64,000 nt of DNA from a virus (taxonomy: Duplodnaviria > Caudoviricetes), in the IMG/VR virus record IMGVR_UViG_3300021256_000087, positions 1-64,000 of that record; one strand, written 5' to 3'. The notes under the pieces were generated by a model that worked only from the letters and a program-made list of their open reading frames with translations, was not told the origin of the DNA and did not search any database. The translations under genes and the position numbers were made by a program. Shown piece by piece: positions 4,047 through 47,651 of this stretch (its first letter is position 1; each line of letters opens with the position of its first letter).

Positions 4047-4686
4047 GGTCGAGAATATTGATGTGTGTGGATTTGAACATGCTATTCGCGGGATGAGAAA
4101 TCCTATGAACAGTTGGGATAATAGCGACAGCGAATATAGAAAAGGTATAGATGGAATGTCTATTGATGCTTCAATGGCAAACAATTATCAGATTGGCAAA
4201 TATGATTTAGATCTTATGAAAAGATTATATAAGGCAGGAACAGAGCATAGAAAATATCTCCGTCAGATATTTGTATCAATGGACATAACCGCACCACTGT
4301 ATTGGTGGAAAGAGTTTGACACTTATAAGGTGGGAATAGTGTCTAATTCGTGTTCTACCATGCACAAGATTCATGCCAAAGAGTTTGAGTTGGATGATTT
4401 TAGTCATGAGCATTTATTGCGGTCAGCACTTGATAATTTATCAGGAACTATTGAAACATTAAATAAGTACCGTGTGGTTTACCTTGAGAGTAAGGATAAA
4501 GCGTATTGGTGGCAGATGATACAGTTACTTCCATCATCTTATAATCAGAAACGGACAATAACAATGAACTATGAAAATGTGATGAGCATTATTCATCAGA
4601 GATCCGGACACAAGCTGGATGAGTGGAACGAATTTGTGGAGATCCTTAAAAATCTTCCCTATGTTAAAGAAATTATGGGGGATTAA
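4039..4686 (+). CDS. thyX: Flavin-dependent thymidylate synthase (ThyX)-like, divergent phage type
   Basis: Motifs EHRKYLRQI, APLYWWKEFDTYKVG, SCSTMHK, LLPSSYNQKRT; the classic RHR motif is not intact. Confidence 0.65.
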   Translation: MIKVENIDVCGFEHAIRGMRNPMNSWDNSDSEYRKGIDGMSIDASMANNYQIGKYDLDLMKRLYKAGTEHRKYLRQIFVSMDITAPLYWWKEFDTYKVGIVSNSCSTMHKIHAKEFELDDFSHEHLLRSALDNLSGTIETLNKYRVVYLESKDKAYWWQMIQLLPSSYNQKRTITMNYENVMSIIHQRSGHKLDEWNEFVEILKNLPYVKEIMGD

Positions 4687-22819: not shown

Positions 22820-22820
22820 T

Positions 22821-29685: not shown

Positions 29686-30519
29686 TTAAATCAATCCAAA
29701 TTTGCTTATTGGTTTGTATGTCATTTCAATTTCTGTATCTGCTAAATTAGCAACAAATATATTTGTCCTATAATCAAGACCGCTTCCCATATTATTCCAT
29801 ATTTTAGGAAAGACATAATTAAAATCATCTTGAATATTTTCATGCGAAACATATGCTGGGAACTGTACGGTTCCGGTTTCACCATCCAAAATTATAGTTT
29901 CACCAGAAGCGCAATTGGCTATAACGGTTAGCTCCTCACGTTTTCGAGTATTATATAATATCAAATGTCCATCGGTATGAATTGTAAAAATACACCGAGG
30001 ATATATAAACCCTTGCTCGTCAGACTTATCTTCGATCGTAACCGTATCAGTACCGGTAACAGTGACCTCATCATAATATCCAAATGGAGCATCAGTGGTC
30101 ATATCAAGTTGAAATCCTATTACATTCCCCATATAAACTATGGGCTGTACATTAAATGTTGCGTTATAATGTACAGTGGGCCATGAAGTATTAGAATAGA
30201 CAGGAACAAAATCTTCATACCGAGGCTGATTAAGCCACCTTAAAATGTTTACAACTTCTTCGTATGTGTAATACCCGCATTTATCACATGGATTTTTAAA
30301 AAATGAAAATTGCTTTTCCACATAAGAATCATAAGTTGATGTGACACTTTTTCTTTTCTTTAACGGCTTTAACTCTATAGGATTTAAATTTAATTCACTA
30401 CCTATATTCACAGGGCCAACAGTATCTCCACCTGATATATCACCAATAACCCCATTAAATTCTGAGAGGCTATGTCCGCAATATATAAAATCTATAAAAT
30501 CATTAACAATAAATTTCAT
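29686..30519 (-). CDS. Distal tail protein (Dit-like)
   Basis: Position after the TMP; FQLDMTTDAPFGY and IYPRC motifs. Confidence 0.7.
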   Translation of the reverse strand: MKFIVNDFIDFIYCGHSLSEFNGVIGDISGGDTVGPVNIGSELNLNPIELKPLKKRKSVTSTYDSYVEKQFSFFKNPCDKCGYYTYEEVVNILRWLNQPRYEDFVPVYSNTSWPTVHYNATFNVQPIVYMGNVIGFQLDMTTDAPFGYYDEVTVTGTDTVTIEDKSDEQGFIYPRCIFTIHTDGHLILYNTRKREELTVIANCASGETIILDGETGTVQFPAYVSHENIQDDFNYVFPKIWNNMGSGLDYRTNIFVANLADTEIEMTYKPISKFGLI

Positions 30520-30821
30520 CCGTCGTCCTCCTTCCCAATACCACATTCTTTCATAAACTTTTCCATTTTCTTTTTATATTCAACGTTGAGTTTTATAAAC
30601 TTCTTACGTTCATCTTCATATTTATTTTTTGCTTCCTGAAGCTCGGTAATCTCGTTAGATACCTTTGTAAGTAATTCATTAAGTTGATATATCAAAGCGT
30701 CGGCCTCTATCTGTTTATCTCTGAGTAACGCCGCATCTATATTATTTTGTTCAAGTTCATTAATTTTTTCTTTTAATGATTTAATGACTTGTTCACGTCT
30801 CTTTAATCTAATGTCCTTCAA
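30516..30821 (-). CDS. Coiled-coil hypothetical protein
   Basis: 101-aa ORF between TMP and Dit. Confidence 0.6.
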   Translation of the reverse strand: MKDIRLKRREQVIKSLKEKINELEQNNIDAALLRDKQIEADALIYQLNELLTKVSNEITELQEAKNKYEDERKKFIKLNVEYKKKMEKFMKECGIGKEDDG

Positions 30822-30887: not shown

Positions 30888-33800
30888 TTAGATAGAGTAT
30901 TTACTCAATTTGCTTTTTCCTAAAGCAGTACCTATAGTTATATTCTGAACCAGCTTTTCGAATTGAGGATCCTTCTTTGCCTTATTAACAAAGTCTTCGT
31001 AACTTGTTACATTGGGCAGTGAGAAGGATACATTCATTCCATTAATTGTGGTTCCAGAAGTAATATTACTTAACGTATTAGCTGGCAGTGTCGCCAGAGG
31101 TTGCATCATCTTAAAGATACTTTGCATCTGCTTTATACGCTCAAGGCTAAGTACTTCTTCACCGGTACGGGCGAGAATAATACCATCCTCTCCAGTACGC
31201 TTAATAGCAGATCCAATTGTACCGCCCTTAGCATAAGCTGCATTTTTTAAAGTATTAGCTTCTTTTATAGCTGCCACTGCTTGAGCATGGTAAAATTGTA
31301 CGTTCGCCAAATAACCTTGCCATTTATCATATACAGCTTGTTTATTTGCTCCGCTCAAAGCAGGAGGTAATGACTTATATTTTTTCTCTTCTGATTTTGC
31401 CAATTGTCTGTATTGTTTTTCTAATTCAATATATTTCTGATACTGCTCTTCGAGTTCTTGTATTTTTCTAATATTAACAGATTTTTTAGATTTTTCTTCT
31501 CCTTCGGAAGGGTCTTCTCCTTGTATTCCATCAGTCGTGACCTGAGGAGAATTATTTGTTCCGTTATTGGATCCATTATTATTCCCATTATTTTGTCCGA
31601 GCTGAGCAATCTGATTTGCAATCTGTGCTGCTTGATTTGCAGAAGAAGTAGCCACTGCATTTGCAAGCGCACTAAGAGCATTCAGTTGATTCTGAGCGTT
31701 GACATTAGCATCGGTGTGCATACCTTCAATCACAGCCTTCACCGCATCAACAGCTCCAACAGCATCGCTAATCTTCATATCGAAATTAATTCCGAAAGAA
31801 GTGTTCTCAAGATCGTACGGAAATTCATCGAGCTCCTGTTGAATACTTTGTTTTATTGTCTCACCACTTGCAGCGGTCTGGTCAATAGCTTGTGCCACCA
31901 GTTTATCGAGATTATCAAGACGATCATCTATGAGTTTCTCAAACGCCTCATACATGTTATCCATCATTTCTTCTTGATCAGAAAGCCACTTATCATACTC
32001 TGTTTGCTGTAAGTCTTCTTCTGCCTTCTTAAGGTCGTCGGCAAGCTGTTGTAAACGAGCACGATTCTCTTCGGAATTATCTCCTCCAAGCGCCGCTAAC
32101 TGTTGCTGATAATTTGTTATAGCTTCAGTTTGCTCTCTGACATTTCTCTCATAATCATAAAGATTCTTTTCAGCCTCTAAAGCTTTCTTACGGTAGTCTA
32201 TAGACTTCTGTAAATAATCAAGGAATGTCTCGTACCCTTGTTTAATTAAATCTCTGATGGCTTGCTTTTCAGAAGAGATACCTTTGATAATATCTCTCCA
32301 CTGATCTATAAGTTCGTTGCGCCTGTCAAGCAACTTCTTATTGTTAGGATCTTTCACAAGATCAGCATTAATCTTTTCTATCTCTTCGGCATAATCCTTG
32401 GCTTGCTCGGTAAGGGTCTGATAACTATTAACGTGCAAACCTTGGACAGAAAGAGCGGCGTCACTCATATTGCCGTTTGCATATAAGTTCTCGCCGATAA
32501 GAGCGTTCTTCTCGAACATCATAGCCTCATCCTGAAGGATGTCGATAAGGAACTCATTCTCTTCAGTAAGGCGACTAACCGAATCTTGAATGTAATCAAA
32601 CTTATCCCATTCAAGTTGTCTAATCTGATCATTATAACCAGCGATATTAGATTGAAGTTCTAAGACTTGATCGTTGACATTTTGAAGACTATCATACATT
32701 CCCCACCACTGTTCGGAACCATACTCAATGTCACCATTGGATACGGCCTCATCAATAGATGCGGCGAGTTGTTGTGCTTCATCTTGAAGTTGACCAAGCT
32801 TATCTTCAGCACCCGCTCTAAGCTGTTCGATTAAAAGCGTAGATTCAAAATATCCTTCTGATTCTATTGTACTCTGTATATGACCAATACGTGTTGCAGC
32901 ATGGTCAATGCTGAGCGCCATCTCTTCGAACTGCTTAGTAATGTAATCAAATCTAGTTTGTGCGAGCTGAGCAATCTCCCCACGCAAATCTTCAACAGCA
33001 TCTGCGGCATCAGTGGATTTATCATAATATTCTTGGAAGTCACTAATTTGCTCTTTGAGTTTTTCGTCAGTAACAGTTTCAATATCCATAAGGCCATTCA
33101 TAACTTTACTACGATACTCAGCACTTAATCCAATTGCATTAGCCTCTGCCATATAGGCCTGTGCGGCTTGCTCTTGGAGAGCGATTTCTTCCTTGAGTTT
33201 CTGATATTTGCCTGATGTAAATTTATCGTAATCAGCATAAATAGCTTCTTGCTGAAGATGTAATCTTTCAGCATAATCATCCGCTTCTTCAAGGGTGTCA
33301 AATATACCTAAGTATTCACCGGTGTTATGATATCTATCAAGTGCCTCATCACTGGTCATCTCATATGGATTACCAAGCTCGTCCCAGTCAATGGTTGGAA
33401 CTAAAACAAATTTACCATCCTCTTCAAAGGATTCACTTAATACAGTTTCTACCCAAGATTCACCGTTTTCTTCTTGCCAAAGCTGAGGTCTATTATACAG
33501 ATCAATATTGCCACGACCAAACTGACCAATCTCGTCATGGAACTCTTCGGTCTTACCCATAAGGGCGTCAATTCTATCGCCCCACTTCTTATATGTTGCA
33601 TCGGCAACCTTACCGAGATTAGTGACAGCACGCTGGATTTTCTTAATCGCGCGCTCAATCCAGTCGAACTTCTGCTTAGAGTCACCGGACTTGTCATTAT
33701 CGACCATGGTATTGGCATCCCATTTTACATCAGGTTTCCAATCCACCTCGACACTACTAATTGCGTTTGCAACTTCATCTCTAAGTTCATTGGCTTCCTT

Positions 33801-36800
33801 TAAATATTGAGAAGCAGTATATGAACCGGATCCTAAATTTTGAGCAACATGTTCAAGATAATCGGCTCTTGCAAGTTTTTCTTCTGCCTTTGCAAGTTCA
33901 AGAGTTCCAACGGTAGCTATTCCAAGAGACTTATACAATTTGATGAGATTATTGACATCTTCCTTAGTCTCAATTGTAATACTATTTGCAAGTATTCTTC
34001 CCTTATAATAGTTTAATAAAGCTTCATTACTGAGAATAAGTTGTATTTGCTCTTCGGTTAAATCACCAATTTCAGCGTCAATATCTATCTCGTTTTTGTT
34101 AGCCTCTTCTTTTGCAGCAGCATAAGTTTCTGCACTATATCCTAATCTTGAGAAAAGAACATCCGCTGCATTCGTTACACCCATTTCGGTTAATGTCTTC
34201 TGAACAAAAAGTGCAGTTTCTCCTGACGCTTGCCCAAGAGCAGGATTTAAACTATCTACAAGTGTAGTAGCCAATCCATTAAATGCATCATGAGCTTCTT
34301 TCTCTGTAGTTGTCGCATCTGATAATGTAAGAATGAAATCATTAATCTGATCTGTAGAGAAGCCTTCAAGACCTTTTTCTTTCAAATCATTATTTAATGA
34401 TTCTACTTGGCTTCTGACACTTTCTAACTGTTCAGACGTTACCTTAGATATATTAAATCCGGAATCGCTCCAAATAGCTTTGTACGCAGTAGCCATAGCA
34501 TCAAACATAGGCTTATACTGAGCTTCCATGTTTTTAAGCATGGTGGATGCGTCAGATGTTTTCTCTAAGCCGGATGTTTCAAGCTTATACATGGCGACCG
34601 CCTCAGCAGCCGACGTAGCTTGTTCTGCTATATTTTTCCATATTGTAAGTTCTTCATCTGTACCTATTCCTAAGGCATCGAAAGAAGATCCTAACATACC
34701 AAATCTACTTGCGGCAGCATCACGATAACTTTGATAATCGTCTTCAAATGTAAGTTGATTATTTTCTTTGAAAAGTCCTTGACTATAAAGCCTATCAAGA
34801 GCTTGAGTATAATCTACTCCCATGGCGTCGAAGGTATCTTTGAGGAGCTTAAGCCATCCTTGTTGATCATTTGAGAATCCTGACAGATCTCCTCCTGTGA
34901 GATAATTTAATATTTGAGTTTTACTCAAACCACTATCTCCAAGCCACTTTCCAACGGCTTCCGCTCTGTCACCTAAATTAGCGCCATTTTCAGTTTGTTT
35001 ATTCCAATACTCATCGAGATGCGCATTCTCAATCTCGTCGGCATATGTTTTAAAGAATGATCTTAACCATTTCTTTGCGCCCTCATCATTAGCATCAGAC
35101 GCAATTTCCCACATTGTCATGAGATTATCTTTAAGAGCTCTTTCTGTTTCTTCTGTGGGATTCTGAAGATTCTCATAGTATGAGTTCATCAAGGATTCAT
35201 ACTCAGAGTAGTGTTCTTTAGCCATTCTGTCTTGGGCCGCAATTAACCACTCATCAAGATATTCCTCTTCATCTTTGCTCATTTGATCAAGAGCGCGCTG
35301 AATAAAATCAGAAGCTGCATCGGTACCTATCCGGCCTTCATATTCTTCTCTGCCCAATTCCATTTGAGCTTGAGTAAGCATTGTTTTGAGTTCATCATAA
35401 TTAGCGGCTTCAAAATCTATCATACCCAATCGCATGGTTTGTAGATTATTATTTTTTAACACCTCTTTAGGTAGGATATCTTTTAAAACATTAAGGGCTA
35501 ATTCTGCAGATACGGTATTTGTAAATATACCTAAATTAGACCCAGTTCTACCATTAAAGACGCCTTCGGCAGTAGAGGCTCTATCGCTTCCAGACCCAAT
35601 TGAACGCCAGTTAAAAGTTGATTCAGATTTTCTAGCAGCTTCTCTATTCTTGAGTATTTGATTCTCAATTAGCAGTTGGTTTTGTTCTTTTAGATCGCTA
35701 TTTGCGTTCTGAATTACAGTACTATAATTTCCATATGTCTCATTAAGTTCTTGTTGAATAGTTATTAATTCGTTCTTAGCATCTCTGATCTGCTCAGTGG
35801 TTGAATTCTCATCTCTAAGAACTCTATTAGCTTCCCCTATACGCTTAGCATAATCATCAAGAGATTTATTTGATTTGGCTGTTTCTTTGGCAAACTCTTT
35901 TGAGGCCTGTTGTGCTTCTTGATATTTCTTAATCGCGTAATTTATCGCTGTGACGACGGCTGTAATTCCTATGGTTACAATTAATCCTTTTATCGCCGGC
36001 TGTAAATCTTTCTTGGCAGATTCGCTTAAAGCATTTTGTGCGTTTTCTAATTTTCTTTCACTATCCGTTAATTTATCGGTTGCACCAGCTAACGTATTCC
36101 AAGCCTCATCCGCATTATCAAATGTTTCCTTTAAATTTTCAGCATCAATATCAGTATCTTGGAAAACTTGATCAAGATCCTTAAAATTTTCTAAGGCTGA
36201 TGTGTAATCAACTTTATCTAAATCATATTGCTGCTGAGCATAATTAGCATTTTGTCTAATCTGGAAATATCTTTGTATTCCACCATTACTTCCCACTAAC
36301 CCAATTCCAGCACCGGCGGTAAGAGTGGGTAATAATCCGACTTTACCAACTATTTCAGTTAATACATTTAACAATTCCGTTAACGCACTTATTGCATTTT
36401 TAACAGCATCTGTGTCAATAAACTCTTGCCAGAAATTCTCACCGGCAGTTTGAAGCTGAGTCATACGTCCCTGAATTGAATCAACTATGTGCGCATTTTC
36501 CTCCATAGCAGATCCTTCAGATTCTTCAATGGATTTAAGAACATTATCAATCTGCTTGTAGTTCTGCAGCATTGCAGCAAGAGCGTTTGATCTATTCTTA
36601 CCAGCAAGTTTTTCAAGCATCGCGGTACGATCGATATCTGACATTTCATCATAGACCTTACCGATACCTTTAATAATATCCGCAAGAGACTTAAAGGTAT
36701 CTTCATCTTCCATGATGTCAAAGCCTTCGTACTTCCCATTTATGCTAGTATAACCCTTGATAAGCTCTCTAAGTTTAGATGTAGATTTTACAACATAATC

Positions 36801-39800
36801 TGTTTCCTCGCCCATTTCCTCAAGTTCGGAAGATGCGCCTCTAATACGGAGAGCGATAGTTCTAAGTGCAGTACCAGTCTTTTCAGGATCCTGAAGGATT
36901 TCATTACCGGCAGTAATAAGAGCGATAGATTCATTAAATGAAGTATTAGATGCCGCAAGTACCGAAGCGGAACGCTGCATTGCATCTCCAATATCAGTAG
37001 CGGAGAGAGCAAAGTGGTTACCTATTTCGTTATACTTATCTACGATTGACATTGCGTCATCAGCCGTAATATTGAACGCTTTCATGGCGGTGATCATCAT
37101 ATCGGTAGCACCCTTGATATCAACACCGTCTCCAACATTTACAAATACACGTGCGTCCTTTGCTAACTCTGTAGCCTCTTTAATAGAGTATCCTAAGCGG
37201 CTCCAGTCTGCAGCCGACTGTATTAAATCAGCATTTGTTGAAGCAACATCGACAGCTGTTGAACGAATTGTATCTCTAAATTCTGAGTATTCTTTCTCAG
37301 TAGCATCAGTAACTTTACGAAGTTCGACCATTGCGGTGTCGAGCTCTTTTATGGTATTAACACCGGTACGAACATAACGAATAATATCGTACAGTGAAAA
37401 ATATCTAGCAATTTGAGCAGTAAACTGTGCCTTTAAACTCTTACCAATTCTAGTAAAAGCATCTACACCATATACGCCTAATTGCTTGTATTTTGAGCCA
37501 AGATCCATAACCTCGGCTTTTATATTATCATATCTTTCTCTATTAATACCTTCAACAACTTCATCGGCCTTTTTGCCTTCTACTCTTAATAATTGTAATT
37601 CATTTACTAAATTATAAATTCTACTTCTATCGTCTGCTGAAACACCTCGTCCTCGTGTGTTGTTTTGTAGTTCGATAGCATCATTTAATAATTTAGAAAC
37701 TTGGGAAGCTTTAACCGTAACATTTTGATCACTCTGTGCTTCTATGAATCTCTTTCTGTAATCTTCAAGACTTCTATAAGCTTTTCTGATGATCGCCTCA
37801 GCACCTTCTCCGGCATTTTCTATATTTAATAATTGTCTTATTAATTCTTTAGCTTGAGCCGATTCTTCGTCAACCGTATTCTCAAATGCTTTTGTATATC
37901 CAAATCCTTGTTGCCTTTTTCGAACCATTGAGTTCGAAATATCTTTTTGGATCTTTCCGATTTGTCTGGCAAGATTAGCCCCGACCTCTTGATATTCGCT
38001 GTTAGATCCTAATATGCTTTCAACAAATTCACTACCAACATCTTTGCCACGAGCATATTCTCTAATAGCATTATATGCCACATTTAATTTTGACGTAAGA
38101 TTATCAATATATCCTTCATCAGCATCGGTATCAAATTTAGCTTCAGCAATAAGTTTACGAAGATTATACGTTCTTTGATATTGCGTATTTATCTCTTTAA
38201 TGTTTTCAATAGTAGAAGAAAGTTCATCACCTTCTTGTACTAATTTAGCATAATCTTCGGCGCTTCTAATATCACCGGCTTTAAAATCCTGCAACCTTCC
38301 AATATGTTCATTCATTCGGACGTTTATAGAATTGATAGTCCCCAAAACGTCATCTCCGATACTATCGCGTATTGCAGCATTCATAAGAGACCGGAGTTCT
38401 TCGATGCGTCTATCAATCACGCCAGTGTCTACAATTTTGACACGGCTACTTGCATTAGTAGATTGCTTGACAAGATCTTTAGCATTATCTATGTATTGCT
38501 GTCCATCTGCTAATGCCTCTTCTACTATAGAAGTATCAGATTCGCCAAATAATACATTTTCTAATCGCTCGACAATACGATCCCTCGCTTCGATAATATT
38601 GCGTGCGTTGCCCATAAACTCTTCGGAATATATTATGCCTTTATCAGTGTTGTTTTTGATATTATCAACAAGTTTATCTCCATTTTCCTCTATATCTTTT
38701 AATATTTTTTCAGCAACAACACGATTGGCTTCTGCGGTAATTTTGTCCAGTTCTATATTTTTCTCTTCATCGGTCGTTAATCTTGAACCTTCAACATAGG
38801 TGCTGAACAGCTTATTAAAACTATCTTTCTGTTTTGAAATACCACGATTATCTCCGGAAAGTCTCTTAGTTTGAATCTTTGCTTGTAATTCTACAAGGTT
38901 ATTGTACGCTGTAAGTTTACCGGCATCTAAACTATTTTTGGCAACTAGCTTTGAATACCTATCATTAAACCTACGCCACTCTTTAAGATCCGCTCTGTTT
39001 GTTGGATTATCATAATTAATTAAATCTTGTTTTAATTTCTTTAAACCCTCGATATCTCGATTTTCTCCGGATCTTATAATAATCCTATCAATTTTATTTA
39101 AGAACTCAACTACCTGATCGTGAGTGATAGCTTTCCGTTCCTCAGCCCCTTCACTATTTTTCGCATCAGCATTAATACTATCCGCCTGAACGTTCACGAC
39201 ATTTGTCTTTAATACTTCTGTATGATTAGTATCAACTATTGTGACATGAGGAGAACTAATTACTATTCCTTCCTCTGTGCCAACAATTTTAGGTTCAGTC
39301 TTAGGTTCATTGGTATCGGATTTCTTTATTGATTTTCTTTCTTTAGGAGGTTCTTTCGGAGGTTCCTGAGACGTTTTAGGCTTTTGCTCAGACTCGGCTT
39401 TATTCTTAAATTTATTATCAGTATATTCTTTACCAAAAGTCCTTCTTATTGCAAGTTTGAATTCATCAATGGCTCTCGCCGCCGTACTAACTTTAGGAAC
39501 TATACTATTCCACAAATCCAATTCTTGGGCGTTACTTATCTTTAATGAATCGAATTGTTTCTCTGTCATTAAACCGGAATCAATAGCTTTTTTACGAGCA
39601 ATAGGAAGCTGAGACTCCAGATATAAGGACTCTATTGCAGAGTCAAAATTCGTCTTTAATTTATCTAAATTTTTCTGAGCAGCGTTATAATCATCTTCTT
39701 CTGCTTTGAATGGATTATGTATCGATTTCATAACATCAGTAAAGATGGTGATTGCCTCACGTATATCAGTCAATAAAGATACTTCCTTGGCGTCTCCCTT

Positions 39801-42800
39801 AGGATCAGGTTCCCCTTCTTTTGCCTTCGCTATATTTTTAGCTAATGCGTTATAAGAGATCCATTCAGAAAGTTTTCCTTTTTCGTCTAATCTAGAAACA
39901 CTAACATCTCCGCCATATTTTGATAATATTCGCGACATAGTGGTATTAATGATATCAGACTGTACAGACTCCAAATTGTCCTCAAAATGCCAAACCATCC
40001 TACCTTCTTCATCTTTGTCGATGCTATCTTTGAATCCCGCATCTCGCAGAGCTTTAATGATTTCACTTGACATTTCATCAAATAATTGAGAATGTGTGAT
40101 TTTAGACCAATCAATATTACTATAATCCATTTTGAGAAGTGTATCACCATGTCCTAAATACTCAATTTTAGATTTTCTCTTGCTAGCAGCATAAAGATCT
40201 GCATAGCTTGGAGCTAAATCGTCAGAAGATCCCCATGGATGCGTATGAAAATATATGCCAGACTTGGAATAAGGGACAACAACAGAGGTTTCGTCTCCTA
40301 CTACAGCTTCCCCACCGAAACCAAATTCATTATCAACATGACCAAATGTTTTCAGCATATCAATAATTATGGCAAGCTCATCTTTATACTCACCATTTAC
40401 CATTCGAGTATTTATCTGACCCACCATAGCAAACATTTGATCTCTACTCATACCTTCAGGTTTTACTGAAAAATCAGTTTTATCCCGCAAATTTTTAGGA
40501 TCAACAGCGTAATGATTTATCTTGTCCTCCAACAAATCCATAGACTTACGAAGCTCTAGATATTCCGCACTTAATTGTTTTTTTTCTTCAATTAATTTAA
40601 GTTCTTCATTGTGTTTTAATTTAGTGAAATCTTTTACCTCATTAAGTTGCGTGTTTAATCTATCTCGATCTTTTACCGCAATATAATCGTCTCTCTTTGT
40701 AATTAGATTATTTCTTTCTCGTTCTAATTTAGATACTTCTTTTTTATCGCGAGTATTATTCTCATCAGAAAGATATTCATTTATCTCGTTTATTCTATTT
40801 ACTAATGTCCTATAATCCTCTGGCGTTATTGCCCGAAGAGATGCTATATATTTTTTAGAAAATTTGCTTAACTTTTGATCTAAACTTTTTATTCTCTGAG
40901 GATTCTCATCGGCAATTTTGGCTTTTGCAAAATATTGATCTATCTCAGACATTCTACCCGATAATTTAGATAATTCTTCTTTTCCAGAAGCAAGGGTTTC
41001 CTTATCTTTCTCTATAATTTGATCAAGATAAGTTTTAATAAATTTCTGAACCAATGTCTTATCGAACGCAGTTACTTTATCGTATTGGTCTTCTGGCAAA
41101 GCCATTAATTTAGCCCAAGTTTCCTCATCATAAAGACCCGCTTCTTTAAGACGCGCAAGTTGAGTTTCTTTAACCGCTTTTTGGGCATTTTCATATTCAA
41201 TCTTTTTTTGCTCTGTAATGGCTTCTTGAACTTCTATCTCTTCATGCAGCGCCTTGATTGAGTTCATTGTCTCTAATTTCTTTTGTTCTTCAAGTTTCGC
41301 TGCTTGTTCTGCTTGTCTTGCCTTTTCTTTATCTCTTTGACGTTGACTTTCAGCTATTCTTTCTTCAGCTTCAACGATCATATCTTCCCGAGTCTTTGGT
41401 TCAACGGAGCCCGACGAAGGTTCTTCCGGTTTTATAGGAACCATCGTAGTATTTCTACCAGATTGTTCATGCGCCCCTGCCATTGTTTGCTGGAATCTTC
41501 TATCCATGGTCGCAACAATATCTTGAACATTGGTAAAATGCTTAAAGTCTATTTTACGATTAGGATCTATCTGAGTAACGTTTGCCAAAGTATTGTACTC
41601 TTTAAGGAAGCGTTGATGGTACACCCAATATGCATATAAATATTTACGCTCTTTTTCCATAGCGTCCATTTTTGCAGCTATTTCTTCTTCTGTGTTCTCC
41701 GACATCGAAGCTGCGTCCAACGGAATCTCTCCTATAAGTTTCTTTTTATATGCTCCTGCTTTATAACCATCAGGCAATTCGGCTTTTAATCGGTCTAATT
41801 CTTCTCTCCACGCTTGATCTTGTTCTGCATAATATAATTGTATTTCATTGAATTTATCAAATGGAATACCGTATGTATTTTCACTATAAGATATTCTTTC
41901 TTTTTTTCTGCTAAATGTTTTCTGAAGAAATAATTCTCGTTCCAGTGATTTCAAATATTCTTCGTCTGGGTCATCCATTCCTCTTACGGTCTCAATTTCG
42001 AGAGCTAATTGTGTAATCCTATCATTTTGATTTTTAATAATATTTCCGACAGTACGACCCTGTAAATAAGAAGTCATTCCCTTTGTTATATCTTTTTGCT
42101 GAGAAAGAGCTTTGACATAACCTTGGGTTTTTTCTAATTCTTTCTTTATTTCCCTAGCACGGGCTTTATTCTCTGCTAAATTATTATATTCATTTTGCAG
42201 CATCTCTCGCGCATTTGGAATAACCGCTCCTTCTTCAGCTGCTTCAGCCATATCTGCCTTTAACCCTTGGATTCTATTTGAAATGTCATTGCTAGTATTA
42301 GCAGCCTTACGAAGAGCTTGCGAAAGATTTTGTTCTTTTATCTGAAGAGTCTCTAATAAAGAATCTGTAAAATCTGTTTGAACAGCATCTATAAATCTTT
42401 GCTCCTCAGGGGAAAGCTCTTCTCCGGCCAAATATTTCGTTAACATATCTCTTGTGGCTACCGCGTCTCGATAAACCGGAGATTTTTCAGGGTCTCTTCC
42501 TGCCTCGGCCAAAGACTCTTCCATTTGTGTAATTTGATCTTGAACGTGATCCAATAATTGATTAACATTATCTTTTAATCCAGTATTAAAATCATCTCTT
42601 CTGTCATACATAACAGAGTGGGGAGTCTCGGTAGCATCGTCTATTTTTCGTAATTCTTCTCCATATTTATCCATTGCGAATCTACGTTGATCTATATCAG
42701 GATATACTCCTTGATACATTTCCTCAACGTCATTTGATTTTATATCGAGATCTATTGTACGTTTTAATTCTTGAGCCGTTTCCGTATTTTCTTTTATAGT

Positions 42801-45800
42801 TTCAGCAAGAGCCTCATTAGAATTTACAACCTTATCCTGACTATTTTCTTCGGCTTTAATTTCTTGGGCAACTTCTTGTATTTTAGCACCTGCATTATCT
42901 ATATTTTCTACACCCTTAATCTCTTGCTCAGTTTCTTGTGTCTTTACAATTGTTTTTTTTGACTCTTTTTCCAGAGAAGCCTTTCGCGCTTCGTCTTCTT
43001 GTCTTCGTATTTCGGCAATACGTTCTTCCTCTTTTCTTCGCGCTGCTGCTTCGGCAACTCTTTCTTCTTCTAATTTTGCCGCCTCAGCATCTTCTTTCTC
43101 TTTAAGCCTTTGCTGCTCTTCGGTTAAAATTATAGAAGGAGAATTATTTAATTTATTTTGTTCGAGAACCCTAGCTCTAGATCCCTCGCGCTCAAGATCA
43201 TCTTTTTCTCTTTGTTCAGCAAGTGTTTGCCGTAGTCTTTCTTTATCATTTTCTGTTGCGTTTTGTCTCCATTCTAGTACTTTTCTCCCCCATTCACTTC
43301 CTACGGTTTGTTGTCTCTGTTCTTTTTTTTCATCAGATTTTTGACTAGTATCCGAAGTGACAAAAATAGAGTCCTCAATTTTATCTAGTATATCTTTGGA
43401 TATTTCTTTATTTATATCTACACCTAATTTATCTCTCTGATGTACTTCAGCTATTAATAATTTAAGATATTCGGTATTTGCCTTAAAAAAGTCTGTAGCA
43501 TCCGAATATTCTATTTTATCACTATCACCTACTGCAATATTGAAATGATCGTTTGTTCCAACAAGACCACTCATTAATGATTTTATATAAGTACGAGGGG
43601 ATTTAAAATTCTCTACTTTTTTATTACCATGTTCTTTTAATGCCAATGCTTTGAGATCGTTAATCACATCACCAGTAATATCTTTTTCTATTGACGCGGT
43701 TATATCATCCGCAAAAATTCTAGCTTTTTCAATCCATTTATGGTTGCTTTCATTATGCAAAACAGAGTTCCCGCTTTTAGGATCTACTATACCGAGAAAA
43801 GATACCCTCCTCGCGGCTTCTTTCCGATCCGCCTCTTTGTTATACGTTGCAGTAATCCCCTTCATGTCAGCCAAAGCTCTGAGTTTAAGCTTATCGTCAT
43901 CAGATACCTCATCTCCAATGAAGAGTCTTTTTCGTATCTTATTCATCTCATTCAAGATTTTATCGTAATCCAGTTGTAATATTTCTTCTCCAAACTTGTA
44001 ACCAGCCTCATAAAATTTATGGATAAAAGATTTAGGGTCTGCTAATTTCTCATCGAATTTTTTTTGTGCTGTTTCATAATCTGTGTCCGTATTTACCGGT
44101 ATTAATTTAACTTCATTTTTATGTTCCGAAATATTATGTAATACATCATCATTTCCGCTTATCTTATCCGCGGCTTCTAATATTTTTTCTGCAGCAGCGT
44201 TAATGTTAGCTGCAGCTTGCTCCATAGTGACAGACGAATCTTTATATCCAGAGAAAGCATCTCTAATATTGTCGTTTATCTCTTCGTTGGCTTTCCATAC
44301 TTCGTTGGTTTTATCATCCACGAAATTATTTCCCCTAAGTGTTGCCGTGCTGAGTTTACCTCCAAATTCAGCCAGAACATCTTCAACAGCATTTCTCACC
44401 GCAGAAGAAATAGCCTTATCTTTTCCTCTAACAGTTTCAAATTCAGTGGTTCCAGTCCGTTCATCTTTTATAATACGGCCACCATTTGCAACCGCCGATT
44501 TAAAGATTCTGTCGATAATTTTATTTTCTAATTCATCAGGGGATATTTTGCTCCAATCAATTCCACCGAAATCCATTTTTAACAAACGTTCTCCGTGTGC
44601 TATATACGCTTCTTTAAGATGAGCTTCTCCCGTGAGCATTAAATCATTTCTGATATGACTCATATAGCTACGGATATCTTGAGCACTGGGCGCAAATGCG
44701 TCATACCCGAGTAACGGATGAGTGTGAAAATTTACTCCCAATCTTTTATTGGAAATCCTAATTTGATCCTCTTCTCCTTTGATTATTTCTTTACCATTAA
44801 ATCCAAATTCGGACACCATTTCGTCCTTAAAATTTTTAACAATATCTTTAATAATCTCAAAATAATCACCGACCTCACCGAGATCTTTATTCATAGATTT
44901 AACAGTCTGAGATAATTTCAAATTTTTTACTTCCTTTTCAGGATCAGCCATAAAATCTAGATTAAGACTATGGAACTTAGACACAACATCATCTACTTCT
45001 TTTATCTTATCTCTTATGAGCTTTTCGATGTCTTCTCCGTAACCGCCATACTTTGTAGTTCTATCTCCAATATAGCTCATAATGTGATCCTTAACTTTAG
45101 CGTATAACCCTTTTCTAGGATCTTTTGCTGTTTTTTCTTCTATGCCAGCTCTTAAAAGAGTGCCCATTATAGCTTCAATTTCACCATCGGTAATTTTATC
45201 TTTTTCGTAATCCCTTCCTTCTCGGCCCAGATATTTGTCAAGATTACCGATCAAAAAATTCAAAACGTCTCGATCAGTTTTTTTGTTATTTCGAGCATCT
45301 TTCGCGGCGAGAGCATATCTTTTTAAATTTATGTTTTTAGCTGCCTTAACAGATTTAAATATTTCTGCGTCGTCAGAAAACAAAGACCCAATATCTAATT
45401 GATTCACTTTAGAAGCGAACTCGTCTAGATTATTTTTTACAGATTTCAATTCATCAAAATAATCAAAAGAAGTTGAAAAGCCTTTCAATAAATCTTTATA
45501 TAGTCCTTTCCAATTTGAATTAAATCGCTCAGCTATAAAAGCTTTTTTAAAAGTACGCTCTATTGCTGAAAGATCTTCTTCAGAAAGCGTATTCTTATCT
45601 TTAACGAGATCTTCTAAATACTTATCAAGATCGACATAAAAATTAGCATGTGACTTTGTGCGATTTTTTTTTAAGTCTTCTATTATAGAACTATCAATCA
45701 AAGGCTCTTCTGTGTAGTTCCTTTTGCTTTTATTATTTTTCTTTGCAGGAGAACTCTTTTGAGGAACAACCTCTTCTACAACTTGAACTTTTTTTACTAC

Positions 45801-45899
45801 CGGCTCTTCTTCCATTTTTTCTATATATTTCTGAATAGCCCGTACTTCTTTTTCGAAATTCTTTTTATTAAGTTTTACGTTAATTTCATAATTGGCCAT
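30888..45899 (-). CDS. Giant tail tape measure protein (~5003 aa) with extra domains
   Basis: TP901-type TMP core (~36500-37400), long coiled coils, C-terminal YAKGG...ARTGEEVL; ATG 45899 after GGAGGTG. Confidence 0.88.
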   Translation of the reverse strand: MANYEINVKLNKKNFEKEVRAIQKYIEKMEEEPVVKKVQVVEEVVPQKSSPAKKNNKSKRNYTEEPLIDSSIIEDLKKNRTKSHANFYVDLDKYLEDLVKDKNTLSEEDLSAIERTFKKAFIAERFNSNWKGLYKDLLKGFSTSFDYFDELKSVKNNLDEFASKVNQLDIGSLFSDDAEIFKSVKAAKNINLKRYALAAKDARNNKKTDRDVLNFLIGNLDKYLGREGRDYEKDKITDGEIEAIMGTLLRAGIEEKTAKDPRKGLYAKVKDHIMSYIGDRTTKYGGYGEDIEKLIRDKIKEVDDVVSKFHSLNLDFMADPEKEVKNLKLSQTVKSMNKDLGEVGDYFEIIKDIVKNFKDEMVSEFGFNGKEIIKGEEDQIRISNKRLGVNFHTHPLLGYDAFAPSAQDIRSYMSHIRNDLMLTGEAHLKEAYIAHGERLLKMDFGGIDWSKISPDELENKIIDRIFKSAVANGGRIIKDERTGTTEFETVRGKDKAISSAVRNAVEDVLAEFGGKLSTATLRGNNFVDDKTNEVWKANEEINDNIRDAFSGYKDSSVTMEQAAANINAAAEKILEAADKISGNDDVLHNISEHKNEVKLIPVNTDTDYETAQKKFDEKLADPKSFIHKFYEAGYKFGEEILQLDYDKILNEMNKIRKRLFIGDEVSDDDKLKLRALADMKGITATYNKEADRKEAARRVSFLGIVDPKSGNSVLHNESNHKWIEKARIFADDITASIEKDITGDVINDLKALALKEHGNKKVENFKSPRTYIKSLMSGLVGTNDHFNIAVGDSDKIEYSDATDFFKANTEYLKLLIAEVHQRDKLGVDINKEISKDILDKIEDSIFVTSDTSQKSDEKKEQRQQTVGSEWGRKVLEWRQNATENDKERLRQTLAEQREKDDLEREGSRARVLEQNKLNNSPSIILTEEQQRLKEKEDAEAAKLEEERVAEAAARRKEEERIAEIRRQEDEARKASLEKESKKTIVKTQETEQEIKGVENIDNAGAKIQEVAQEIKAEENSQDKVVNSNEALAETIKENTETAQELKRTIDLDIKSNDVEEMYQGVYPDIDQRRFAMDKYGEELRKIDDATETPHSVMYDRRDDFNTGLKDNVNQLLDHVQDQITQMEESLAEAGRDPEKSPVYRDAVATRDMLTKYLAGEELSPEEQRFIDAVQTDFTDSLLETLQIKEQNLSQALRKAANTSNDISNRIQGLKADMAEAAEEGAVIPNAREMLQNEYNNLAENKARAREIKKELEKTQGYVKALSQQKDITKGMTSYLQGRTVGNIIKNQNDRITQLALEIETVRGMDDPDEEYLKSLERELFLQKTFSRKKERISYSENTYGIPFDKFNEIQLYYAEQDQAWREELDRLKAELPDGYKAGAYKKKLIGEIPLDAASMSENTEEEIAAKMDAMEKERKYLYAYWVYHQRFLKEYNTLANVTQIDPNRKIDFKHFTNVQDIVATMDRRFQQTMAGAHEQSGRNTTMVPIKPEEPSSGSVEPKTREDMIVEAEERIAESQRQRDKEKARQAEQAAKLEEQKKLETMNSIKALHEEIEVQEAITEQKKIEYENAQKAVKETQLARLKEAGLYDEETWAKLMALPEDQYDKVTAFDKTLVQKFIKTYLDQIIEKDKETLASGKEELSKLSGRMSEIDQYFAKAKIADENPQRIKSLDQKLSKFSKKYIASLRAITPEDYRTLVNRINEINEYLSDENNTRDKKEVSKLERERNNLITKRDDYIAVKDRDRLNTQLNEVKDFTKLKHNEELKLIEEKKQLSAEYLELRKSMDLLEDKINHYAVDPKNLRDKTDFSVKPEGMSRDQMFAMVGQINTRMVNGEYKDELAIIIDMLKTFGHVDNEFGFGGEAVVGDETSVVVPYSKSGIYFHTHPWGSSDDLAPSYADLYAASKRKSKIEYLGHGDTLLKMDYSNIDWSKITHSQLFDEMSSEIIKALRDAGFKDSIDKDEEGRMVWHFEDNLESVQSDIINTTMSRILSKYGGDVSVSRLDEKGKLSEWISYNALAKNIAKAKEGEPDPKGDAKEVSLLTDIREAITIFTDVMKSIHNPFKAEEDDYNAAQKNLDKLKTNFDSAIESLYLESQLPIARKKAIDSGLMTEKQFDSLKISNAQELDLWNSIVPKVSTAARAIDEFKLAIRRTFGKEYTDNKFKNKAESEQKPKTSQEPPKEPPKERKSIKKSDTNEPKTEPKIVGTEEGIVISSPHVTIVDTNHTEVLKTNVVNVQADSINADAKNSEGAEERKAITHDQVVEFLNKIDRIIIRSGENRDIEGLKKLKQDLINYDNPTNRADLKEWRRFNDRYSKLVAKNSLDAGKLTAYNNLVELQAKIQTKRLSGDNRGISKQKDSFNKLFSTYVEGSRLTTDEEKNIELDKITAEANRVVAEKILKDIEENGDKLVDNIKNNTDKGIIYSEEFMGNARNIIEARDRIVERLENVLFGESDTSIVEEALADGQQYIDNAKDLVKQSTNASSRVKIVDTGVIDRRIEELRSLMNAAIRDSIGDDVLGTINSINVRMNEHIGRLQDFKAGDIRSAEDYAKLVQEGDELSSTIENIKEINTQYQRTYNLRKLIAEAKFDTDADEGYIDNLTSKLNVAYNAIREYARGKDVGSEFVESILGSNSEYQEVGANLARQIGKIQKDISNSMVRKRQQGFGYTKAFENTVDEESAQAKELIRQLLNIENAGEGAEAIIRKAYRSLEDYRKRFIEAQSDQNVTVKASQVSKLLNDAIELQNNTRGRGVSADDRSRIYNLVNELQLLRVEGKKADEVVEGINRERYDNIKAEVMDLGSKYKQLGVYGVDAFTRIGKSLKAQFTAQIARYFSLYDIIRYVRTGVNTIKELDTAMVELRKVTDATEKEYSEFRDTIRSTAVDVASTNADLIQSAADWSRLGYSIKEATELAKDARVFVNVGDGVDIKGATDMMITAMKAFNITADDAMSIVDKYNEIGNHFALSATDIGDAMQRSASVLAASNTSFNESIALITAGNEILQDPEKTGTALRTIALRIRGASSELEEMGEETDYVVKSTSKLRELIKGYTSINGKYEGFDIMEDEDTFKSLADIIKGIGKVYDEMSDIDRTAMLEKLAGKNRSNALAAMLQNYKQIDNVLKSIEESEGSAMEENAHIVDSIQGRMTQLQTAGENFWQEFIDTDAVKNAISALTELLNVLTEIVGKVGLLPTLTAGAGIGLVGSNGGIQRYFQIRQNANYAQQQYDLDKVDYTSALENFKDLDQVFQDTDIDAENLKETFDNADEAWNTLAGATDKLTDSERKLENAQNALSESAKKDLQPAIKGLIVTIGITAVVTAINYAIKKYQEAQQASKEFAKETAKSNKSLDDYAKRIGEANRVLRDENSTTEQIRDAKNELITIQQELNETYGNYSTVIQNANSDLKEQNQLLIENQILKNREAARKSESTFNWRSIGSGSDRASTAEGVFNGRTGSNLGIFTNTVSAELALNVLKDILPKEVLKNNNLQTMRLGMIDFEAANYDELKTMLTQAQMELGREEYEGRIGTDAASDFIQRALDQMSKDEEEYLDEWLIAAQDRMAKEHYSEYESLMNSYYENLQNPTEETERALKDNLMTMWEIASDANDEGAKKWLRSFFKTYADEIENAHLDEYWNKQTENGANLGDRAEAVGKWLGDSGLSKTQILNYLTGGDLSGFSNDQQGWLKLLKDTFDAMGVDYTQALDRLYSQGLFKENNQLTFEDDYQSYRDAAASRFGMLGSSFDALGIGTDEELTIWKNIAEQATSAAEAVAMYKLETSGLEKTSDASTMLKNMEAQYKPMFDAMATAYKAIWSDSGFNISKVTSEQLESVRSQVESLNNDLKEKGLEGFSTDQINDFILTLSDATTTEKEAHDAFNGLATTLVDSLNPALGQASGETALFVQKTLTEMGVTNAADVLFSRLGYSAETYAAAKEEANKNEIDIDAEIGDLTEEQIQLILSNEALLNYYKGRILANSITIETKEDVNNLIKLYKSLGIATVGTLELAKAEEKLARADYLEHVAQNLGSGSYTASQYLKEANELRDEVANAISSVEVDWKPDVKWDANTMVDNDKSGDSKQKFDWIERAIKKIQRAVTNLGKVADATYKKWGDRIDALMGKTEEFHDEIGQFGRGNIDLYNRPQLWQEENGESWVETVLSESFEEDGKFVLVPTIDWDELGNPYEMTSDEALDRYHNTGEYLGIFDTLEEADDYAERLHLQQEAIYADYDKFTSGKYQKLKEEIALQEQAAQAYMAEANAIGLSAEYRSKVMNGLMDIETVTDEKLKEQISDFQEYYDKSTDAADAVEDLRGEIAQLAQTRFDYITKQFEEMALSIDHAATRIGHIQSTIESEGYFESTLLIEQLRAGAEDKLGQLQDEAQQLAASIDEAVSNGDIEYGSEQWWGMYDSLQNVNDQVLELQSNIAGYNDQIRQLEWDKFDYIQDSVSRLTEENEFLIDILQDEAMMFEKNALIGENLYANGNMSDAALSVQGLHVNSYQTLTEQAKDYAEEIEKINADLVKDPNNKKLLDRRNELIDQWRDIIKGISSEKQAIRDLIKQGYETFLDYLQKSIDYRKKALEAEKNLYDYERNVREQTEAITNYQQQLAALGGDNSEENRARLQQLADDLKKAEEDLQQTEYDKWLSDQEEMMDNMYEAFEKLIDDRLDNLDKLVAQAIDQTAASGETIKQSIQQELDEFPYDLENTSFGINFDMKISDAVGAVDAVKAVIEGMHTDANVNAQNQLNALSALANAVATSSANQAAQIANQIAQLGQNNGNNNGSNNGTNNSPQVTTDGIQGEDPSEGEEKSKKSVNIRKIQELEEQYQKYIELEKQYRQLAKSEEKKYKSLPPALSGANKQAVYDKWQGYLANVQFYHAQAVAAIKEANTLKNAAYAKGGTIGSAIKRTGEDGIILARTGEEVLSLERIKQMQSIFKMMQPLATLPANTLSNITSGTTINGMNVSFSLPNVTSYEDFVNKAKKDPQFEKLVQNITIGTALGKSKLSKYSI

Positions 45900-45941
45900 A
45901 AAACACCTCCACAAAAATAAAAGAGGCGTCCTTGACACCTC

Positions 45942-46634
45942 TTAACGTTTTTCTTCTATTAACTTTTCTATATCTTTATCTAGATCTTTGGATATCTCTT
46001 TCCATTTGGCATCCAAATGTTTCTTCGTAGTAATTTTCTTATATCGTTTGCCCATTTCCTTAAAGGGCAAGATATCAGAATCAGGGGGTATAATATTCGC
46101 ATCGTATATGTTTTTTAATATCCTTCTTCTACTTGGACGATCTGGATTACCTTTTAAATGATATTTGATATAATATTTTTTCTGACTTTCTTTCGTAGTA
46201 TACCATTTTTCGGAAACTATCTTTTTGTTATATCCAATGATTCCATGATAAAACATCATTTCAAATACTGCATTTTTATCATAGGGTTCTCCTTTATTTT
46301 CGCCCCAACGTGAAAAGATTTCTCCACGTATATTGCTAGACTCTACATTAACCCCTGATTTAAACCAGTCACTCTCCGAAGTATCAATTTGTATTCCACG
46401 ATTATTTCCAATATCATTATAAACATCTGAAGCCTTCAATAAAAACCGCGTTTTATCATAATCTTTACCAGAATTTTTCGCCCAATTAATATAGGCCTCC
46501 ATAAAATCTTCGTAAACTTCTTCGTACGCTTTTTCAATTTCTTCGACAATTTCTTGAGTAAATTGTTTGGCGTATCTTCTGAATTGCGTGTTAAGTACGT
46601 CCTTTATCCTCCCTAACTCCGTTCTCTTCGCCAT
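45942..46634 (-). CDS. Hypothetical tail-region protein
   Basis: 230-aa basic ORF upstream of the TMP. Confidence 0.65.
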   Translation of the reverse strand: MAKRTELGRIKDVLNTQFRRYAKQFTQEIVEEIEKAYEEVYEDFMEAYINWAKNSGKDYDKTRFLLKASDVYNDIGNNRGIQIDTSESDWFKSGVNVESSNIRGEIFSRWGENKGEPYDKNAVFEMMFYHGIIGYNKKIVSEKWYTTKESQKKYYIKYHLKGNPDRPSRRRILKNIYDANIIPPDSDILPFKEMGKRYKKITTKKHLDAKWKEISKDLDKDIEKLIEEKR

Positions 46635-47133
46635 TGGTACTACCTCCATTAATTTGATTCAAGGCCATCTTTTCAACAGCACTTTGCAGTATATTATCCA
46701 AACCCAATATAAGATTTTTTATACGACCTTGAATAGAGTTTACGTTTTCATATTCATCATCATAAATATTGTCTACAATATTCATAAATGTCATAACATC
46801 TTTTTTAGGTAGAGCAGACATAAGTATATCCTCGTATCCCTTTTCAGATAATATATTATAATCCTTTAATGTATCATCAGAAAAAGTTAAGTCCGTATAC
46901 ATTCTAATTAAAGCAAGCACAGTAAGAAAATGTTGTTTATTGGAATCAACCCAAAATATTTTTTGAATCTTTCCTTCCGCATCAACAATATCCTTATAGC
47001 ATGCCATCTCTATAATTTTATGACCTTCAGCAATCTTTTCTTCAAGAGGAACATATTGTCTTGTAATATGTTTCTGTATAACACCCTCTTTATGATCACT
47101 GTTCATTTGTTTAACAAACATTTCTATATTCAT
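46591..47133 (-). CDS. Hypothetical protein, possible tail assembly chaperone
   Basis: 180-aa helical ORF near the TMP; function by position only. Confidence 0.5.
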   Translation of the reverse strand: MNIEMFVKQMNSDHKEGVIQKHITRQYVPLEEKIAEGHKIIEMACYKDIVDAEGKIQKIFWVDSNKQHFLTVLALIRMYTDLTFSDDTLKDYNILSEKGYEDILMSALPKKDVMTFMNIVDNIYDDEYENVNSIQGRIKNLILGLDNILQSAVEKMALNQINGGSTNGEENGVREDKGRT

Positions 47134-47145
47134 GATTATCTCCTT

Positions 47146-47640
47146 TTATTCAAATAAATCATTGCATTCCGATAACCAACCAGCTTCCGCAATGCATATC
47201 GCTTCAGCCTCATCGTCTCCACATTTTATCTTGTATGTTTTATTTACTTTCTTTATTGCTTCCTGTTTAAGTTCTTCACGTTTAAGTTTCGTACCATTCT
47301 TATTACATAGTTTTATTCCGGCTAAACTTCTCCACGCGGATGGAAGCATTTTGGTAAAATTACATTTCATATCTTGACAAACATACATTACAGCTCCAAG
47401 AACATTTGACAACATCTTTGTTGTTTCAATATTTTGTTTATTCCATGAATCCTCTATGTATACAGCAGCGGGGGAATATTCTTTTATAATTGCCCCCAAT
47501 TCGCTCATCATATTCTTGACGCGTTGATCCGCATCATGATTGGATTTCATATTTATTGTATCGTGAAATATAAGTTTACCGTCTTCGATGACAGCAACTC
47601 CAGAACAAGTGGTACTAGCGTCAATGCCCATAACTTTCAT
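47146..47640 (-). CDS. ruvC: RuvC-like Holliday junction resolvase
   Basis: MGIDASTTCSGVAV, VYIED, DDEAEAICIA acidic catalytic pattern. Confidence 0.75.
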   Translation of the reverse strand: MKVMGIDASTTCSGVAVIEDGKLIFHDTINMKSNHDADQRVKNMMSELGAIIKEYSPAAVYIEDSWNKQNIETTKMLSNVLGAVMYVCQDMKCNFTKMLPSAWRSLAGIKLCNKNGTKLKREELKQEAIKKVNKTYKIKCGDDEAEAICIAEAGWLSECNDLFE

Positions 47641-47651
47641 AAGCAATACCT

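Follow-up and report, generated by a model that had tools for sequence, protein, structure and literature searches.

Tape measure proteins (TMPs) are usually viewed as rulers, at most with a wall-degrading module. The locus analysed here raises the question of why a TMP of some 5,000 amino acids should hold two copies of a globular domain with the E...HxH...SxxD motif of JAB/MPN+ (JAMM-type) metalloproteases, and what such a domain would do in a phage tail. The window is a stretch of 64,000 nucleotides, positions 1 to 64,000 of the IMG/VR virus record IMGVR_UViG_3300021256_000087, which has 83,476 bases and a completeness estimate of 66%. All coordinates are window positions, and residue numbers are those of the open reading frame (ORF) read from a GTG codon; counting from the ATG discussed below shifts them by 13. 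Our best full explanation of the two segments, which we hold to be moderately probable, is that they are paralogous copies of a new and divergent JAB/MPN+ domain. As all the JAMM catalytic residues are kept and there is a weak fold match, the phage tail probably carries an enzyme.

A sequence-only reading of the window had placed two paralogous JAB/MPN-like segments inside the TMP. Both are found at the positions it gave, on the minus strand and within one uninterrupted ORF, and the motif strings it quoted, HTHPLLGYDAFAPSAQD and HTHPWGSSDDLAPSYAD, match the window translation exactly. The two domains and their catalytic motifs are as follows.

44319-44957, minus strand: JAB-like domain copy A, residues 328-540, at the orthologous position in all relatives.
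44676-44810, minus strand: putative catalytic motif of copy A, with E377 (44808-44810), H405-T-H407 (44718-44726) and S418..D421 (44676-44687).
39864-40475, minus strand: JAB-like domain copy B, residues 1822-2025, the extra copy and the most diverged.
40197-40328, minus strand: putative catalytic motif of copy B, with E1871 (40326-40328), H1898-T-H1900 (40239-40247) and S1911..D1914 (40197-40208).

In copy A the string EFGF begins at residue 377 (44810) and HTHP at residue 405 (44726), and IDWSKI ends at 44527; the same landmarks in copy B are at residue 1871 (40328), residue 1898 (40247) and 40081. In BLASTP the two regions share 30% identity across 211 aligned columns (E 2e-22), far above chance, which bears out the proposed paralogy. 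Because the alignment spans this many columns, the repeat unit is about 205-215 amino acids; the homology first reported is real, and its extent is longer than the ~95 amino acids then allotted to it. In a composition profile both regions appear as Gly/Pro- and aromatic-rich islands of lower charge amid charged helical sequence. Copy B is 28-34% identical to all other known copies and has the longest branch in a tree of the seven copies, in which its grouping with copy A is weak (support 0.52). It also lacks a loop of 9-14 residues after the SxxD helix that is present in all the others. Just upstream of copy A, a sub-threshold GatB_Yqey match was observed at 44967-45290 (minus strand, residues 217-324; E 2.3e-4, 21.5 bits against a cut-off of 27), which may be a mere helical resemblance.

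The domain is very rare. An exhaustive search of 1.84 billion representative proteins with a two-copy profile (a hidden Markov model) matched seven proteins at E up to 1e-3. Two of them were set aside as spurious, being repetitive proteins with matches confined to short low-scoring repeats, and the other five are true relatives (E 1e-30 to 5e-45; 1,647-5,101 amino acids). The number of copies differs, with a single domain in each relative and two in the window TMP. Four of the five relatives could be traced to contigs, and all four lie in syntenic SPbeta-like siphophage tail modules with the gene order YomW, YomU-type tube protein, RuvC, two ORFs at the chaperone position, the giant gene, a small coiled-coil ORF, DUF6558, a Tal protein of ~1,290 amino acids and DUF285. 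The two short relatives (L003 and L004) are N-terminal parts of TMP genes interrupted by an insertion, not separate proteins, and the domain is therefore part of a TMP in every known case. Further searches gave no additional members: tblastn of copy B against 50,697 phage records had no match, a search of viral contigs and species-representative genome contigs with the domain alignment had no confirmed locus, and a Dit-alignment search of genome contigs likewise confirmed no locus; no host genome or prophage relative came out of these searches. A homologue search with the whole TMP limited to region 320-545 found nothing, and one for longer proteins with the domain alignment returned just two relatives, both already known. 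The domain is thus confined to TMPs, and never free-standing among the known copies. The insertions themselves measure 1,186 nucleotides with an ORF of 325 amino acids (L003:7942-9127) and 1,482 nucleotides with an ORF of 396 amino acids (L004:7615-9096), neither ORF having a Pfam family. Their points of insertion differ, both lying in the PhageMin_Tail region (equivalent to residues 2913 and 2974 of the window TMP), and the alignment picks up exactly after each. They resemble ORF-bearing introns, while Rfam gave no group I, group II or other family at gathering score on L003 and L004.

The JAMM motif is defined as E-xn-HxH-x7-S-x2-D (PMC9313428). An alignment of the seven copies, which share 28-45% pairwise identity, has 18 invariant columns out of about 217, and E, H, H, S and D are all among them; the residues listed in the sequence-only reading are present in order in both window copies and unchanged in all seven. 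JAB is the sole recurrent functional name among the weak sequence matches. A Prok-JAB match in L004 sits exactly on the HxH..SxxD stretch, and DUF4329 also matches L004 (E 0.028). The PADLOC 'JAB' model matches one of the six members (E 0.015), the window copies having no match. With language-model (ESM) features, the nearest named clusters are Prok-JAB, Toxin-JAB1 and DUF4329, at 0.84-0.87.

AlphaFold2 models made with no templates (pLDDT 79 for copy A and 81 for copy B) have the same layout in both copies. The chain opens with two helices, after which one strand begins at the Glu and another follows; a loop modelled at low confidence leads to a third strand, which has HxH at its end, and a further loop leads to a helix that begins with S..D, before a beta-hairpin. 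An addition of ~80 residues with the order helix-strand-strand-helix-strand follows the JAMM-like part. The predicted order of elements appears to be that of the JAMM core minus its first strand. In a PDB search independent of Foldseek, JAMM/MPN proteins make up about 10 of the top 50 matches for copy B and about 19 of the top 50 for copy A, at low Z (3.4-4.8); they include PfJAMM1, AfJAMM, Rpn11, Sst2/AMSH, CSN5, BRCC36 complexes, Cap3 and RadC. Compared with the known JAMM/MPN+ metallo-isopeptidases (AfJAMM 1R5X, PfJAMM1 5LD9, Rpn11, AMSH/Sst2, CSN5 and BRCC36; Pfam JAB and Prok-JAB), the TMP domains share all the catalytic residues, which the models would place alike, the Glu belonging to an E-x-G-aromatic-x-G strand, HxH closing a strand and S..D opening the next helix. 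They differ in that two N-terminal helices take the place of the first strand, in a family-specific C-terminal alpha/beta subdomain (the ~80 residues just described, with invariant IDW.K and [YF]GG), and in being embedded in a structural protein of 5,000 amino acids, rather than free-standing or in an operon with a ubiquitin-like protein (Ubl).

Several results weigh against the assignment. The spacing from the second His to the Ser is 10 residues in every copy, against the canonical 7. Pfam gives neither window copy a match even at E up to 10, whether the TMP is searched in pieces of 850 amino acids or the domains in isolation, and the Prok-JAB match of L004, which is the top Pfam match, is found in one of six members and has 15.9 bits (E 0.012) against a cut-off of 25. 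Sequence searches of the PDB with profiles of 2 and 6 sequences gave chance-level matches and no JAB protein. The Foldseek check that the sequence-only reading had named found no JAB protein in the PDB and nothing below E 0.3. An hhalign comparison with a diverse phage RadC alignment reaches a probability of just 16.5% (P 0.0015), and a narrow RadC profile gave no match; the narrow reference was seeded with E. coli YeeS and holds near-identical RadC proteins, while the diverse set comes from phage records. In addition, the Prok-JAB profile PF14464 has no match in the whole phage record, and a PHROG search of the domains at E up to 1 returned scattered single-member matches with no function assigned. 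The claim that the segments are JAB/MPN-like consequently stands in its invariant residues, its order of elements and the JAMM/MPN proteins among the top 50 structural matches, and falls short in Foldseek against the PDB, in profile significance and in spacing. Since neither the profile thresholds nor the canonical spacing are reached, the domain is filed under no existing family. We consider it fairly likely that the two copies represent a new, very divergent family of JAB-like zinc hydrolases of ~210 amino acids, with zinc binding and catalysis that we infer. An M23 (lysostaphin-type) peptidase was also considered and rejected, as the order is E...HxH...S..D and not HxxxD...HxH, there is no Pfam match and the predicted fold is alpha/beta.

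The strongest fold statistics point elsewhere, to uncharacterised viral proteins. Foldseek against BFVD matches both models at E 8e-5 to 1e-3, with probability 1.0, to such proteins from phages, from giant viruses and from an archaeal virus; several phage 'minor capsid proteins' and the group of African swine fever virus F317L and iridovirus 3R-229L are among the weaker matches. A protein of 182 amino acids from Siphoviridae ctss15 is one of the BFVD and Atlas relatives. In the ESM Atlas, template modelling (TM) scores of 0.52-0.57 over 142-159 residues were obtained, at the fold level alone, to clusters with VG15, Phage_Mu_F, Phage_min_cap2 or portal families among their members, and a score of 0.43 to a ThiF cluster. 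The domain could on this evidence be a module with a virus-specific fold, structural or stabilised by metal, shared with ORF273 of the archaeal virus ATV (4ART), the giant-virus and phage proteins and the MuF-type domains, in which E/HxH/S/D serve folding or assembly rather than JAMM chemistry. We regard this as possible, though doubtful. Exactly the five JAMM catalytic residues are strictly invariant at ~30% identity, and on the right predicted elements. The viral fold relatives may moreover be JAB-like too, since the weaker BFVD matches also contain a Clandestinovirus 'deubiquitination hydrolase' and a Gordonia phage 'metalloprotease'. None of the ATV, BFVD or Atlas proteins (MuF, minor-capsid-2 and portal-fusion domains) has a known function or sequence similarity to the TMP domain, and the MuF (PF04233) and minor-capsid-protein-2 (PF06152) profiles match nothing in the phage record at E up to 10. 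Effector domains that are packaged in the head and injected are known to ride on MuF and portal fusions, and polyvalent proteins that are injected can contain JAB domains of the RadC type (PMC5512222; PMC9503650). As judged from the models, cargo-delivering virion proteins seem to be a recurrent site of this fold, which is a lead rather than a result.

RadC offers a more specific alternative, a JAB module acting on nucleic acid or nucleotides, as proposed for the RadC of injected polyvalent proteins. The HxHP...PSxxD shape of the TMP domain resembles the HNHPSG-x3-PS-x2-D of RadC, and hhalign puts HxHP and PSxxD in register with a gap of 3 residues; RadC domains are found in polyvalent proteins of phages and conjugative elements (Iyer et al. 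2017, PMC5512222), which have in common with the window TMP a JAB-clan reading and a huge multi-module protein thought to enter the host with DNA. The carrier here, however, is a tail tape measure and not a head-packaged or conjugation-delivered protein, the upstream Glu is left unaligned in the weak profile match given above, and RadC ranks 38 among the top 50 for copy B in the non-Foldseek PDB search. The biochemical activity of RadC itself has yet to be established, and we judge the alternative very improbable.

The carrier of both domains is identified by its sequence as a tail TMP, on the strength of the Pfam PF10145 match, the PHROG matches and its position between chaperone-like ORFs and the Dit and Tal proteins. 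The PF10145-matching part has matches to 14 PHROG families, 13 of them annotated as TMP, the best being PHROG 4211 'tail length tape measure protein' (E 7e-71). The parts of the gene are as follows.

30888-45938, minus strand: TMP gene, the longest ORF, uninterrupted, 5,016 codons counted from GTG.
39279-45899, minus strand: variable N-terminal extension, residues 14-2220, mostly charged and helical with two globular islands, upstream of the shared core.
39279-40589, minus strand: segment of ~430 amino acids bearing copy B, residues 1784-2220, without a counterpart at this place in the relative of 3,943 amino acids.
30891-39278, minus strand: TMP core common to all relatives, residues 2221-5016, 47-61% identity and a near-constant length of ~2,620-2,780 amino acids.
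36600-37271, minus strand: PhageMin_Tail (PF10145) core domain, residues 2890-3113 (Pfam E 6.7e-25, 88.6 bits against a cut-off of 33.2).

The start of the TMP is likely the ATG at 45899, which has GGAGG 5' of it and would give a protein of ~5,003 amino acids; the ORF started at GTG would then be too long by 13 residues. Between the stop of the chaperone-position ORF and this GGAGG/ATG, a GC-rich hairpin followed by a T-run (45900-45945, minus strand) has a terminator-like appearance. The helical C-terminal part is broken at 33246-33521 (minus strand, residues ~4140-4230) by a third globular island, rich in Gly, Pro and aromatic residues (GNIDLYNRP...), with no Pfam or PHROG family over it.

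The extension and the core are conserved to different degrees. The extension ranges from ~1,000 to ~2,325 amino acids among the relatives and aligns in patches. Against the relative of 5,101 amino acids, the domain alone (41% identity) is well conserved within the first 2,200 residues. Against the relative of 3,943 amino acids, residues 1045-1783 of the window TMP align with 560-1289 and residues from 2221 onward with those from 1319 onward; between these blocks the copy-B stretch alone matches, at the single domain of that relative (316-552). With the exception of an extreme N-terminus shared with the closest relative, the domain is the best-conserved and the sole consistently kept segment of the extension. 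As the extension varies in length and content while the core is constant, it behaves as a cargo region, and on the alignments the domains are read as sitting outside the length-determining core. The variable length, modular content, change in copy number and retention of the catalytic residues in both copies fit an arms-race effector.

The N-terminus of a siphophage TMP is head-proximal and expected to exit the tail last. The mechanism we prefer, tentatively and with low confidence, is that the extension is ejected cargo whose domain cleaves a bond in the host cell. Because it lies in the head-proximal part, the domain would leave the tail last, just before the DNA, and after refolding would cut a host peptide or isopeptide bond, for example in a ubiquitin-like conjugate made by a defence system. 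According to the models, Zn2+ would be held between the HxH that ends a beta-strand and the Asp of the next helix; the upstream Glu in E-x-G-[FY]-x-G would activate water, and the intermediate would be stabilised by the N-cap Ser of the helix. Two points count against this mechanism. A folded domain of 23 kDa would be a tight fit in the lumen of the tail tube and would have to travel unfolded or staggered, and no ubiquitin-like domain or E1/E2 gene was found among the neighbours examined, the whole phage genome not having been screened for Ubl, E1 or E2.

Alternatively, the domain could be a maturation protease acting in cis: while the tail is assembled it would cut the giant precursor and remove or free the extension, leaving the core of ~2,700 amino acids as the ruler. 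The length relationships favour it: the core is constant while the extension differs by more than 1,300 amino acids among close relatives, and under the TMP ruler rule of ~0.15 nm per residue the whole protein as ruler would imply a spread of ~200 nm in tail length and a tail of ~750 nm for this phage. Processing of TMPs is known in lambda and T5, and the domain is always within the TMP polypeptide. JAMM enzymes also cleave linear fusions besides isopeptides, as reported for DRJAMM acting on MoaD-MoaE (PMC8832034). Yet neither a Ubl domain nor a recognisable diglycine cleavage site is present, the invariant [YF]GG lying inside a confidently folded helix-to-strand turn, and one copy would be enough for self-processing where two catalytically intact copies (by motif) are kept. 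This appears unlikely, somewhat more so than the ejected cargo we prefer. In a variant, the domain would trim adducts off tail proteins during assembly.

Enzymatic TMP modules are themselves familiar, such as the M23 peptidase of T5 pb2, SPbeta YomI/CwlP and the Rpf-like motifs of mycobacteriophages; these are muralytic and tip-proximal or central, and the large Firmicute siphophages related to the window phage usually carry one (SPbeta YomI/CwlP, T5 pb2). In the window no muralytic domain was recognised in the TMP, in the protein at the Tal position or elsewhere in the tail module, and the relatives of the portal are all phages of Bacillota. The TMP domains could act as a virion cell-wall hydrolase, an isopeptidase acting on the stem peptide or cross-bridge of the peptidoglycan of a Gram-positive host during tail penetration. 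They are however in the head-proximal half of the TMP, expected to exit after the wall has been crossed; no cell-wall-binding module is nearby, and to our knowledge JAMM-fold peptidoglycan hydrolases have not been established. Of all the alternatives we find this one the least credible. The likeness to the known TMP enzymes is in the predicted architecture, a globular catalytic module interrupting a long helical TMP, whereas the fold, the motif and the position in a head-proximal, non-conserved extension are different.

Coming back to the ejected cargo we prefer, the most specific form of the idea concerns antiphage defence. The sequence-only reading had proposed an anti-defence deconjugase or a self-processing protease, and both proposals are plausible as hypotheses. 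The central tail fibre of the phage, from which tail assembly nucleates, is the protein to which Bil attaches a Ubl (bioRxiv 10.1101/2023.09.04.556158), and the anti-CBASS or anti-Bil idea, which is compatible with the results above, gains some appeal from this target. The JAMM-like modules might strip Ubl adducts attached by defence systems (Bil, or type II CBASS, in which Cap2 primes the cyclase), at the growing tail or in the cytoplasm directly after ejection; we would call this distinctly improbable, below the maturation protease and above the RadC-like module. Cap3 of type II CBASS and the other defence JAB deconjugases differ from the TMP domain in that the matches to them are non-significant, that the TMP domain is phage-encoded and not part of a defence island, and that no E1, E2 or Ubl adjoins it among the neighbours examined.

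The phage lambda tail protein K had been cited in the sequence-only reading as a further JAB example. K (JAB-like plus NlpC/P60, alongside the ubiquitin-like protein I) resembles the TMP domain in having a JAB-type motif, HSHP...SEAD, within a siphophage tail-assembly cluster. Unlike the TMP domain, it is a small, separate, C40-annotated protein outside the TMP; there is no sequence similarity to the TMP domain, and no Ubl partner was found here. The remark is correct as to the motif, but the annotated K product has no N-terminal part of a JAB domain, because the gene (L007:1277-1876, 'C40 family peptidase') starts 20 residues before HSHP...SEAD, with an in-frame stop codon upstream. As it begins inside the JAB motif, the annotated product was rejected as a JAB reference.

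The literature searched contains no prior report of a JAB, JAMM or MPN domain in a tape measure protein. Enzymatic TMP modules and JAB domains in injected phage proteins are known already; new are the very divergent family, its carrier and its position. A small clade of large Bacillota siphophages has a long, fast-evolving N-terminal TMP extension, and what is conserved most consistently in it is a domain that is probably a JAB-superfamily zinc hydrolase; this domain defines a protein family without a Pfam model, with structural relatives among many uncharacterised viral proteins. If the domain is active, the TMP would be a delivery vehicle or a self-processing precursor besides a ruler, and a JAMM-type enzyme would be placed at the tail, where Bil attaches ubiquitin-like proteins. 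Should the deconjugase reading hold, it would be the first phage counter to ubiquitin-like conjugation in prokaryotes, and the TMP the first shown to carry an enzyme bound for the cytoplasm. The two small, well-delimited domains make the idea of a phage deconjugase directly testable.

The surrounding tail module contains the following features.

45942-47133, minus strand: two overlapping ORFs (235 and 180 amino acids) at the tail assembly chaperone position, directly upstream of the TMP, with the same layout in relatives L001-L004.
30516-30821, minus strand: ORF of 101 amino acids between TMP and Dit, strongly helical and Lys/Glu-rich, a predicted coiled coil with 46-62% identity in relatives and not ubiquitin-like.
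29686-30546, minus strand: Dit-like distal tail protein matching the N- and C-terminal domains of DUF6558; its identity establishes the tail-module context.
25809-29675, minus strand: protein of 1,288 amino acids at the Tal position, with no Pfam or PHROG match.
18941-24980, minus strand: two large DUF285 (BspA-type repeat) proteins at the receptor-binding position after Tal, arranged alike in relatives.

The chaperone-position ORFs have no family match, and their putative role follows from position alone. The portal is 26% identical to the portals of large Bacillota siphophages, namely Alicyclobacillus KKP_3916, Brevibacillus Sundance and Bacillus phages, and equally to those of the Lactococcus phages P1048, PMBT69, AM1-AM12 and LW81. 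The ORF of 558 amino acids adjoining the portal was considered as a MuF-type protein with the same fold as the TMP domains and rejected, as it has an acidic linker and protease/scaffold-like features instead. A RuvC-like resolvase gene (47146-47646, minus strand; PF02075, E 4.4e-9) is also part of the tail module; it lies after the tube gene and before the chaperone-position ORFs, a placement kept in relatives L001-L003 as well.

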